Assembly (NCBI GenBank): GCA_045119575.1
Contig: JBGVDX010000188.1
Span: 1-34,569, forward strand
DNA length: 34,569 nt
Reading direction: 5' to 3'
Source: Acutalibacteraceae bacterium
GTDB taxonomy: Bacteria > Bacillota > Clostridia > Oscillospirales > Acutalibacteraceae
Below, one piece after another: positions 994-8,661 of the stretch (the first letter of the stretch is position 1; each line of letters opens with the position of its first letter). The position numbers and the translations under genes were made by a program. The notes under the pieces are model-generated. The model saw only the letters and a program-made list of their open reading frames with translations. It searched no databases and was not told the origin of the DNA.

Positions 994-3900
994 ATGTCAT
1001 CAGTAACAGAAAAATATGGCACAAATTTACTTAATCCGTTGGCAACGAACACCAATAAAGCAGATTATAAAATTAACGAGCTCAACACCGCTATTAATAA
1101 TTTTCAAAAAAACGCATCTGTTACTAATGATGCGGCAATCATAGCTGATTTATCTGTTGATGTAGCCAATAAGCTCGAAAATGCTAAAAATTATATTTCT
1201 GATGATGTTTATAAAAACATACAGAATCAATTAATTTCTTACCGAAGTGCCAGCAATCAGCAGAGAATAAATCAGGAAATCAGGCAAAATTTAATAGAAA
1301 AAAATAAAGCAGCTCGTGAAAGCGCGGCTGACAGAATCGGTTCCATTGTCAAAAACAAAATGGTAACCGATACTGCAACTGCGCTTGATTTGCTTGAATT
1401 ACAACAACTTGAACAGCAAGGCGTAAAGGCGGATTCGACTGTTGTTTCTGATGTGCAAAAACATCTTTTAGGGCAAGAAACAAGCGAACCTATTTATACA
1501 CAATCATCTTTATTTGAATCGTTTGTTGAAGAAATAGAAAGCAAATATAACTTGCCTAAAAACCCTAAAAATGCAGAAGCGCCTTTAGATTGGGTTGACC
1601 AATTGCTTCCAAACTTGCGAGAAGACATGGAGAGTTTGGAGTATCTTGAAAAGAATGGGGGACTGACAGAAGAAGAAAAGAAATGGTATAATGAAGTTAA
1701 ACAACAGATAGCCGATTTTGAAACTTATAAAAAAATCAAACCGGTATACGAAACAAAAAAAGAAGCGAAATTGTTATCATATGACATAAGCAGCCTTTCG
1801 TATGAGGATAGATTAATTGAATATGAAAATGCTTTAAAATCAGGTGATGAATTATATGCGGGATATATCGACGAACATAAGTATGATGGTTTATCATATG
1901 ATAAATTATTAGAAATTGAAGAGCAGCTTAAGGAAAAGGCAACGCCGGTTTATGATTACGTTGATATTGATGAAGCCACCGACGCTCTTGGTCCGTTAAT
2001 TGCACAAAAGAATAAATATGACGAATTAATAAATCGAGGCATAGATTTAGGTGAACAGCAAGAATATTATGATGATATAGTAAGACAAATATCAGAAATA
2101 GAAAAATTCATAGAAGCATATAATGCCGGTGAAGTAGTAGATGTTGAGGCTGCGAATAAGGAGCTTAAATCTTTTCAAAGGGATGTTCTGTATTACGCTA
2201 AGCATGAACACGAGCTTGATACCCTTGGTGATATTGGCGATGATTTTATTGAAGCAATAAAAGAGAACCAGGACGCTAAAAATTTCAAGGTTCGATTTTC
2301 TTCGCACGACAAAATCGAGGAAATCAAAAAAGAAATAATTGATAGCGGCATTATGACCAAAGAGGAAGTCAACAATTTAAAATATTACATTAAAAGTCAG
2401 TATCAGGCCGAAAAAAACAAATCCGAAATGGAAGATGTTTTTGCAGATGTCAGCCAATACAATGATTTGCAGGAAATCGGTATGACACTATGGTCGGTTC
2501 CGAACACTTTTGGCGGTAATATTCTTTCTCTTTTCGATTCCTTATATCAAGTAACTCGCGAATTTTTTGGCGGCGAAGTACGTCCCGTGAATCCGTATTC
2601 CGATATAAACGCCAGCGCTCAATATGCTAAGACAATCAGAGAAGCGGTAATGGCAGACCAGAGCGATACAGAAAAGTTCTTTTACGGAATAGGCTGTTCT
2701 TTGCTTGATATGGGCGCGTCTATCGCGGCAAGCGGCGGCATTGGCGATTCACTAACCAAATCAATAACGGGAAAAGCTGTTGCAGGTTCTTTAACTAAAA
2801 ACGCTACATTAGCCAGTATGTCGCTTAGCGCAGGCGGCGGAAGCGCGATTGATGCCATGGAAAAAACCTCAAATCCATACGAGGTTGCGGCGGTGGGCGT
2901 TTCTGCGGCCGTTTTTGAACCATTATCAGAGAAATTAACTCTTGATAATTTATTTGAAATTGCAGGTCAAAGCGGTAAAATAACTTCCTCAATGATATTA
3001 AAAGCTATGGGTAGTCAGGCGGCTTCCGAATTTGGAGAAGAAGCGGCTACCGAAACGGCGAATATCATTATGGAAGCTGTTGCGCTAAACGATAAATCCG
3101 ATTGGTCTCAAACAGTACAGTATTATATCGATGAAGGATATAGCGAAAGCGAAGCAAGAGGAAAAGCTCTCGTTTCGATGATTGGTCGCGTAGGAATGTC
3201 CGGTCTTGCCGGAGCGATTTCGGGCGGAGTTACCGGCGGCGGAGCTTCGACTATAAATTATTTATCATATAATTATTCTTTGAATTCTACCGGAAATACT
3301 CTCATTAAAAACAATCAGGTTGAGCGGCTTATCGAATTAGCAGAAACATCAGGAATAGATATTTCGGCATATAATCTTGACGGCAAAAAGGGCAATTATA
3401 ATGCAAAGGCTGTCGGCGAGCTCTATTTTGAGCTTATGCGAAACAAGAGCGACGCTGTTTCGAACGCTTTAAAAGAAATGGGTGTTTCGGAAGCCGATAT
3501 AAGCATTGTTCAGAGCGCCATGTTAAGAGAATCCGCAGGACAACCTCTTTCAAGCGAAATGCAGGCGAAATATAGCCAGTATGAAGATGTTATAAAACAT
3601 TCCTTTGAAGATGAATCGTCGAATTTGAGTGTAGCCGCTAATGATTATCTTTTGACGTCGTTATTGGTAGATATAGCACGCCCAAAAGCACCGAACAACT
3701 CAACCGACGTATCGGAAACCGATAGCGCCGATGTTGACTTTGATACTAATATTGACGGTGATATTGATACCGACGTCAACGTTGAATCGAGTAGCGATAT
3801 TGACACCGCTACCGAAAGTGAGATTGCCGAAGCGGATTATTTGGATAACGAAACGCTTGAATCAGTCGAGGAAAACGAGTATGACAAGACCATTCGTTTA

Positions 3901-8661: not shown

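Follow-up and report, generated by a model that had tools for sequence, protein, structure and literature searches.

A 2555-aa polyvalent protein, probably an internal virion (ejection) protein, in a temperate podovirus-like phage of gut Clostridia

The window analysed here, a 34,569-bp stretch of DNA from an Acutalibacteraceae bacterium (GCA_045119575.1), makes up the entire contig JBGVDX010000188.1, and its longest open reading frame (ORF; nt 994..8661, + strand, ATG start) encodes a giant protein of 2555 amino acids (aa). We consider it probable, with fairly good confidence, that this giant is an internal virion (ejection/core) protein of a temperate, short-tailed phage with a host among the gut Clostridia, and that it consists of a conserved C-terminal anchor of ~900 aa, here called module D, preceded by an N-terminal cargo. 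The finding that carries this reading is that module D, as judged from sequence profiles, is homologous to the internal virion proteins that occupy the gp16 slot of marine T7-like phages.

The AlphaFold2 (AF2) model of aa 1640–2555 is almost all helical, with a predicted local distance difference test score (pLDDT) of 75.5 and a predicted template modelling score (pTM) of 0.62. Compared by Foldseek with the predicted viral structures of BFVD, it matched polyvalent proteins of gut viromes (E down to 1e-55) as well as entries named 'internal virion protein' from the T7-like phages S-RIP1, S-CBP2, S-CBP3 and Pelagibacter phage Eyrgjafa, at E values between 1e-10 and 1e-12. Of these entries, the one from S-RIP1 lies in the gp16 position and is homologous to P-SSP7 gp16, Syn5 gp45 and the 'internal virion protein D' of HTVC025P. 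A profile of module D built from 30 sequences (A1) was aligned by hhalign to the gp16-slot proteins of 11 cyanopodoviruses and pelagiphages with a probability of 99.4% (E=1.4e-21, 496 aligned columns), and the aligned stretch includes the motifs DKWNAWRYLAMLGNPRTHIRN (nt 6598–6660), LPFKKTPINIIKRGVEYSP (nt 7168–7224) and GHSYTVDWMAP (nt 7453–7485). Control comparisons were negative (reversed alignment, E=0.12; gp15 of T7, P-SSP7 and S-RIP1, E>0.1), so that a compositional artefact is an unlikely source of the match. A hidden Markov model (HMM) made from the 11 marine proteins only picked out the giant as the sole significant match among the 186 ORFs of the window (E=1.9e-4), and the same model matched 261 of 325 family proteins (best 3.9e-20). 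The homology was revealed only by the profile of the 11 marine sequences; alignments of A1 to single sequences (P-SSP7 gp15 and gp16, the S-RIP1 gp16-like protein, T7 gp15 and gp16) were not significant.

The position of the gene points the same way. The giant ORF ends at nt 8661 and the tail fibre gene starts at nt 8719, and a gp16-slot gene directly 5' of the tail fibre gene is also found in P-SSP7, S-RIP1, S-CBP1/3/4, S-TIP37, P60, Syn5, HTVC025P and T7; in P-SSP3 and S-SRP01 the gene 3' of the gp16-slot gene is annotated only as a hypothetical protein. Gene order and the homology of module D therefore both bear out an earlier note on this DNA, made from its letters alone, which had placed the gene just before the tail fibre in an ejection slot of the T7 gp14–16 type. 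In Syn5, gp43, gp44 and gp45 are capsid core proteins equivalent to T7 gp14, gp15 and gp16 (PMC5850374).

The 2555-aa gene is real. A GGAGG Shine-Dalgarno sequence lies 7 nt 5' of its ATG, directly past the stop of the preceding gene, and a full-length homologue from another data source (P0007, 2565 aa) is 46% identical over 99% of the query. P0007 and five further giants have long collinear stretches in common with the 2555-aa protein and, because they have the same architecture, the ORF is not an assembly chimera. The earlier description of a single ORF covering about 22% of the window is thus confirmed by the ORF call, the Shine-Dalgarno sequence and the homologues. Modules were delimited from a BLAST map of 68 giant homologues (1.5–4.4 thousand aa, kaa) together with local profile searches, and are as follows (nt positions first).

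994..8661, + strand: giant gene, encoding the probable 2555-aa polyvalent internal virion (ejection) protein (ORF, homologues, Shine-Dalgarno sequence)
994..2370, + strand: N-terminal K/E-rich helical region, aa 1–459, common only to the close relatives P0002–P0007
2371..3618, + strand: module A, aa ~460–875, an all-helical, G/A/S-rich hydrophobic domain (homology, AF2)
3622..3915, + strand: Asp/Glu-rich disordered linker, aa ~877–974 (D+E 28%, AF2 pLDDT <35)
3916..4617, + strand: HExxH (zincin-like) module, aa 975–1208, with invariant H1043, E1044, H1047 (nt 4120–4134) and E1118
4603..4617, + strand: junction motif 1, GDVQYS, aa 1204–1208, at the homology breakpoint with P0002–P0006
4618..5139, + strand: small alpha/beta domain, aa 1209–1382, low-confidence model, common to P0007 and in part to P0027 and P0038
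5140..5154, + strand: junction motif 2, NEVSYS, aa 1383–1387
5155..5820, + strand: ART-PolyVal ADP-ribosyltransferase (ART) module, aa 1388–1609, with the triad H1429, Y1454, D1552
5821..5835, + strand: junction motif 3, NDIRYS, aa 1610–1614
5911..8253, + strand: module D, aa 1640–2420, the conserved all-alpha core of the family (homology, AF2)
6577..8193, + strand: part of module D aligned by hhalign to the marine gp16-slot proteins, aa 1862–2400 (= P-SSP7 gp16 aa 578–1161)
7330..7386, + strand: strongly hydrophobic helix, aa 2113–2131 (Kyte-Doolittle 1.86)
8254..8658, + strand: variable C-terminal tail, aa 2421–2555
8344–8385, + strand: EF-hand-like acidic loop DKDFDGSGGVSKSE, aa 2451–2464, within the variable C-terminal tail

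Composition, AF2, Pfam and the homologues place the K/E-rich N-terminal region (K+E 20–28% in aa 100–500), the Asp-rich linker, the HExxH module and the ART-like module about where the earlier note had read them. The Gly/Ala/Ser-rich hydrophobic region it described is likewise present (G+A+S 34–38% in aa 501–800), but is more than low complexity: it belongs to module A, a conserved domain that AF2 models as helical (pLDDT 70–85). Two clear transmembrane helices had also been proposed. The segment at aa 2113–2131 is strongly hydrophobic, conserved in the family and situated inside the stretch aligned to cyanophage gp16, while the second, at nt 7477–7530, is weaker and falls below the Kyte-Doolittle threshold of 1.4. 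The acidic loop in the C-terminal tail may bind calcium, and several BFVD structural homologues of the module D model are annotated as 'EF-hand domain-containing protein'. The whole 2555-aa protein has no match in PHROGs; phmmer of the whole protein and searches with profiles A1, A2 and A3 gave chance-level matches only among PDB sequences, and Foldseek of both AF2 models against the PDB returned nothing below E=0.05.

Module D has no match to Pfam, PHROG or PDB sequences, yet it belongs to a very large family. Used alone as query it retrieved at least 856 proteins, all named 'hypothetical', from Clostridia, Oscillospiraceae and related metagenome-assembled genomes (MAGs) and isolates, in which its partners include MuF_C, LPD3, LPD23, ART-PolyVal, PBECR3, zeta toxin and M23 peptidase. 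Profile A1 matched 15,491 clusters (50% identity) at E<=1e-3 among 1.84 billion representatives, 6,192 of them at E<=1e-30, and in almost all of the best 150 of the 15,491 clusters module D stands at the C-terminus of a protein of 1.6–3.8 kaa (1.6–4.4 kaa for the family at large, where this placing is nearly constant). It occurs as prophage genes in 196 species-representative genomes, mostly of gut Clostridia, the hosts including Acutalibacteraceae, Oscillospiraceae, Ruminococcus, Yeguia, Massiliimalia, Agathobaculum, Lawsonibacter, Pseudoflavonifractor and Dielma. The open frame 5' of module D ranges from 189 to >2000 codons. A Clostridia MAG from cattle colon contains the nearest relative (88% identity), with the same genes beside it, and two distant relatives (L001, L002) occupy the same slot in podovirus-like modules with a P22 portal or SU10 adaptor. 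A few loci (L046, L087, L092) come from MAGs labelled Pseudomonadota, Saccharibacteria or Bacteroidales, all others being from Clostridia/Bacillota; these three are on short contigs and are probably mis-binned phage contigs, not an indication of true host range.

Module A is seen in about 40 of 189 family proteins, always near the N-terminus, and we regard it as the second conserved scaffold element of the family. It has no known relative: its profile gave only chance-level matches to PDB sequences, comparisons showed no relation to the gp16 profile, to T7 gp15 and gp16 or to module D, and a word-indexed protein search with module A as sole query returned one match. It also occurs in the giants P0062–P0068, for which the BLAST map shows no detectable module D match. 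This last distribution, together with the conservation and constant N-terminal placing of module A, would suit a polyvalent effector that is packaged by way of some other anchor, such as module A, with module D itself acting as an enzyme or membrane effector; the many invariant polar residues of module D (NPRTHIRN, KTPxN, RGVEYSP) do recall an active site. The same motifs are, however, conserved in the structural core proteins of the cyanophage gp16 slot, and the C-terminal placing of module D across the best clusters is that of an anchor, so that packaging by another anchor appears quite improbable.

The cargo includes two enzyme-like modules. The sole HExxH of the protein is HEITH at aa 1043, and among homologues of the module with 16–28% identity, which show the variants HEITH, HELTH, HEVAH, HELAH and HEMTH, the residues corresponding to H1043, E1044, H1047 and E1118 are invariant. 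AF2 gives the order helix, strands, HExxH helix, helices (pLDDT 80–90). This HExxH-plus-Glu zincin signature agrees with that of the metallopeptidases (MPTases) of polyvalent proteins (PMC5512222). The module has no Pfam match in the query or in P0027, P0037 and P0038, and neither a PDB profile match nor, with the multi-domain model that was searched, a Foldseek match in the PDB. The second module matches Pfam ART-PolyVal (PF18760) at aa 1428–1587 (E=6e-7, 30.7 bits). The same module scores 46–125 bits in relatives, and the low score of the query is due to a helical insert of ~90 aa between the Y and D of its triad. In the aligned ART modules H1429 is kept in 7/8, D1552 in 8/8 and Y1454 (GxGxYF motif) in 6/8. 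The ART-PolyVal clade is defined by an H in strand 1, a Y in strand 2 and a D in strand 5 (PMC5512222), and the query module has this H-Y-D configuration.

ART-PolyVal and the conserved HExxH are joined in one chain with three or more other modules that homology breakpoints delimit, and the gene lies among virion genes, between the portal/tail genes and the tail fibre, a context shared by the relatives. In the same position the relatives carry, among others, LPD3, LPD23, LPD38, MuF_C, PBECR3/5 and zeta toxin domains. MuF_C adjoins module D in some of them; the query has no match to MuF (Phage_Mu_F) or MuF_C in Pfam. With its ART-PolyVal and HExxH modules and the polyvalent domains swapped among its relatives, the giant qualifies as a polyvalent protein as Iyer et al. 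(2017) used the term, which had been suggested for it.

Position and enzymes could also be read as those of a virion protein outside the capsid, an external or tail-lumen plug, needle or muzzle whose enzymes act on the wall or surface and are not delivered into the cytoplasm. The gene does sit between the tail genes and that of the fibre, searches identified neither nozzle nor adaptor in the phage, and peptidoglycan peptides would be a possible substrate of an HExxH peptidase; the authors of a study of phage phi24B suggest a wall role for their own peptidase-like domain (bioRxiv 10.64898/2026.04.10.717836). This placement is nevertheless improbable in view of the homology to proteins of the T7/Syn5 internal core position, the requirement of ART-PolyVal for NAD+ and intracellular targets (Iyer 2017, PMC5512222), and a build (~285 kDa, mainly helical, with a disordered linker) that is typical of ejection proteins.

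A short recurring motif stands at each of the three boundaries of the middle modules. The pattern [DENG][IV][RQKSH][YF]S occurs three times in the query against 0.14 expected, and 90 times in the 189 family proteins against 13.2 expected, an enrichment that is partly circular because the pattern was picked after inspection of the data. The motif stands after many different modules, with the consensus D-I-R-Y-S-(L/F). Homology to P0002–P0006 breaks at q1206–1211, and P0022 matches only q1390–1618. Since these breakpoints coincide with junction motifs, modules have been exchanged at those junctions, and the comparison with large related proteins that the earlier note had proposed thus brings out swapping of modules. 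In the AF2 model the segment around junction motif 1 is of low confidence and probably flexible. The motif may serve as a site of proteolytic processing, or else may be a conserved end-strand that favours recombination. Processing has been predicted in general for polyvalent proteins that contain an MPTase (PMC5512222). A bolder proposal, which we consider rather unlikely, is that the giant is a true viral polyprotein whose D-I-R-Y-S junctions are cut by the HExxH module in cis or by a host or phage protease, and that it represents a T7-type ejectosome adapted to monoderm envelopes and serving as the main vehicle of anti-host effectors in prophages of gut Clostridia. Cleavage of a single ejected chain would, on this view, release module D as a membrane conduit piece, module A as a separate membrane-active piece, and the enzymes (ART and others) in free form.

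The closest known counterparts are the marine gp16-slot proteins of the type called IVP-D (internal virion protein D), namely P-SSP7 gp16, Syn5 gp45, S-RIP1 AGG91249 and HTVC025P gp39. Profile homology to these extends over ~540 residues; they too are all-alpha, with a conserved hydrophobic helix and a gene directly 5' of the tail fibre. They differ in size (860–1470 aa) and have no detectable ART, HExxH or module A, whereas the window protein has ~1640 aa of additional N-terminal cargo. In contrast to the marine phages, the phage of the window is temperate and its host a monoderm member of the Clostridia. T7 gp16 (internal virion protein D) has the same position relative to the tail fibre, and the anchor here is of similar size class. 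T7 gp16 is helical and membrane-active, and carries an N-terminal lytic transglycosylase; unlike it, the window protein has no detected lytic transglycosylase domain.

With the polyvalent proteins described by Iyer, Burroughs, Anand, de Souza and Aravind (2017; PMC5512222) the giant shares a giant multi-effector chain encoded among virion genes, the H-Y-D triad of ART-PolyVal, an MPTase-like HExxH module and, in its relatives, swapped LPD, MuF_C, PBECR and zeta-toxin domains. It differs in that its scaffold modules A and D match no Pfam model and there is no fusion to MuF or to a portal. The terms 'transmembrane' and 'internal virion' are absent from the main text of that paper. Homologues of IVP-D with cytoplasmic cargo are on record, the virion RNA polymerase N4 gp50 and the methylase gp60 of Pseudomonas phage H66 (Hardies et al. 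2016; PMC4819975). These follow the same design principle, an IVP-D-like module fused to domains that act inside the host, but their cargo is an RNA polymerase or a methylase and their hosts are Gram-negative, while here the cargo comprises ART and HExxH modules. In the Stx2 phage phi24B, the 2811-aa polyvalent protein gp47 was found in virions by proteomics and a role in ejection was proposed (bioRxiv 10.64898/2026.04.10.717836). It is likewise a giant polyvalent protein from the late region of a temperate podovirus, with domains (LPD5, LPD1, LPD38, MuF-C) that differ from those of the window protein. The module A profile was also compared with phi24B gp47 (L098), where it aligned to aa 236–255 (KYIAAGMQPERASALAA) and to a Gly/Ala-rich stretch at aa 408–481 with E=0.004, which in this one-sequence search is not significant; at most this alignment hints that the two proteins might have module A in common.

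The polyvalent concept (PMC5512222), IVP-D homologues with cargo (PMC4819975) and the packaging of phi24B gp47 were thus already known, and what is incremental here is the link of an unannotated core of Clostridia prophages to gp16-slot proteins, module A, and the junction motif. The earlier suggestion that this domain chain may not have been characterised is true if taken narrowly but overstates the novelty; proteins of this architecture are extremely common, and an IVP-D homologue with cytoplasmic cargo is a principle already in print.

The surrounding genes were used to place the giant in its genome. When the contig ends are joined, an ORF of 329 codons runs in frame from an ATG at nt 34559, which directly follows the stop of the 735-aa gene, to nt 979. 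As this ORF is continuous across the ends, the genome is complete, circularly closed or permuted, and the window represents a whole temperate podovirus-like genome of 34.6 kb that is probably circular. The late genes follow the order large terminase (TerL), possible scaffold, major capsid protein (MCP), SU10/P22-type portal, 127 aa, 735 aa, 329 aa, giant, and then collagen-like fibre; 3' of the fibre come a holin, an endolysin and then the integrase, a tyrosine integrase on the opposite strand. The features outside the giant gene are listed below.

26267–26635: candidate small terminase by position, without a Pfam match
26616–27980: large terminase, late region
28234–29070: putative scaffold, 278 aa, without a Pfam match
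29091–29993: HK97-type major head protein
30116..31999, + strand: podovirus-type portal (Pfam SU10_portal, P22_portal)
31962–32345: 127-aa ORF, candidate adaptor by position, without a Pfam match
32345–34552: 735-aa virion protein, candidate nozzle by position, without a Pfam match
34559–34569 joined to 1–979: 329-aa junction ORF
8719..10857, + strand: collagen-repeat tail fibre gene, immediately 3' of the giant gene
17105–21717: recombination/replication block (Mu Gam-like end protection, Sak4-like annealase, SSB-like protein, ERCC4-type nuclease, primase/helicase)

This gene content decides the question whether the giant is an unusually long tape measure protein (TMP) from a phage with a long tail, the genes for tail tube and chaperone lying elsewhere, which had been the alternative of the earlier note. 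A large size, helical content, Gly/Ala-rich hydrophobic stretches and a fibre-like gene next in line would all be expected of a TMP, and the closest capsid proteins are from siphoviruses. The window is, however, a whole and probably circular genome, so that no tail genes lie outside it, and no tail tube, terminator, chaperone or TMP family was matched anywhere in it (Pfam, PHROGs). Furthermore, the portal is of the SU10/P22 type, relatives are found with an SU10 adaptor and P22 portal, and the conserved core has its homologues among the gp16-slot proteins of podoviruses. A TMP is accordingly rejected as extremely improbable.

The proteins encoded between the portal and the giant were compared with several databases. 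In PHROGs, the 735-aa protein matches two families, one named 'virion structural protein' and the other 'internal virion protein'; its 'nozzle-like' identity, put forward in the earlier note, was not confirmed by these virion-protein matches, which were the only ones, and a PDB sequence search of the same protein gave no assignment to adaptor, nozzle or IVP-B/C. The 278-aa scaffold candidate matches one PHROG family without an assigned function, and the 127-aa ORF has no PHROG match. BLAST of the 127-, 735- and 278-aa proteins against their syntenic counterparts in L001 and L002 showed no similarity. The 329-aa junction protein, with a Gln/Ala-rich, coiled-coil-like N-terminal half and a Tyr/Asn/Ser-rich C-terminal half, has no Pfam or PHROG match; its place in the gene order would allow it to be a partner of the giant resembling IVP-B/C. 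For the tail of this phage group there is essentially no annotation.

Several results weigh against an internal virion protein. Foldseek found no solved structure in the PDB like module D, the solved T7 structures being absent from the matches of its model, and T7 gp16 as a single sequence is not detectably similar either to module D or to the profile of the cyanophage proteins. The tie to the studied ejectosomes therefore runs by way of the marine gp16-slot family, synteny and the literature. Similarly, phi24B gp47 as a single sequence gave only E=0.09 against module D in hhalign and was not significant against the gp16 profile, and searches of 50,697 GenBank phage records by megablast and tblastn found no relative. 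On the side of the cargo, the ART-PolyVal score of the query is 0.5 bit under the Pfam gathering cutoff (31.2 bits), and the zincin fold is proposed from the motif and the order of secondary structure elements, with Pfam, PDB profiles and Foldseek giving no match. Pfam, PHROGs and BLAST to L001 and L002 identified none of the 127-, 735- and 329-aa proteins as adaptor, nozzle or IVP-B/C. Presence in virions is a prediction for every member of this Clostridia family, and the host is a monoderm, whereas to our knowledge all studied internal virion protein systems act on Gram-negative envelopes.

Taking the giant as an internal virion protein, a course of infection may be sketched. From the homology with Syn5 gp45 and the analogy to phi24B gp47, we infer that it is present at low copy number in the capsid core and is ejected before the DNA; packaging, ejection, membrane insertion, enzymatic activity and cleavage in this family are all parts of the model and not observations. 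A few copies would be built into the procapsid on the portal, as in T7 and Syn5, and would leave through the tail, in extended form and before the DNA. At the cell envelope the ejected protein would refold, and its hydrophobic helix (or a hairpin) could insert into the cytoplasmic membrane, where module D would help to form a conduit for DNA; module D would thus serve both incorporation and the conduit, and the N-terminal ~1640 aa would be cargo delivered along with it. In or at the host cell, the ART module might modify host targets, as an aid to takeover or as counter-defence, while the HExxH module might cut the polyprotein at exposed D-I-R-Y-S junctions or else attack host proteins or the wall.

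Some further features of the window were noted. A terminator-like hairpin lies between the giant and fibre genes (nt 8675–8704), with a stem of 8 bp including one G-U pair (AGGGGTGG / CCGCCCCT) and the loop AGAAAT, followed by TTAATTATT; it suggests attenuated read-through into the tail fibre gene. The G+C content is 0.52 at nt 9001–10000, compared with about 0.41 elsewhere; this segment is inside the fibre gene, over the collagen Gly-X-Y repeats, and Pfam Collagen matches the fibre protein at aa 332–375 and other places. Three ORFs of equal length (109 aa) at nt 22859–24057 have the look of paralogues, but were found to be unrelated to one another. No tandem repeats were found in the window.

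Among protein families that Pfam, PHROGs and structural data leave unannotated, that of module D is one of the larger, and its link to gp16 gives thousands of 'hypothetical' giants a concrete, testable role. The predictions are directly testable because several cultured lysogens exist (for example Massiliimalia timonensis Marseille-P3753, Yeguia hominis NSJ-40, Merdimmobilis hominis NSJ-153, Lawsonibacter celer NSJ-47, Agathobaculum spp. and Dielma fastidiosa JC13). The combination of a conserved scaffold, an exchangeable middle cargo and a junction motif amounts to a catalogue of injected anti-host effectors, and the giant architecture is a possible chassis for the delivery of proteins into gut bacteria. 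For the phages themselves, the gp16 link suggests that T7-like ejection of proteins also takes place in phages of Gram-positive anaerobes.

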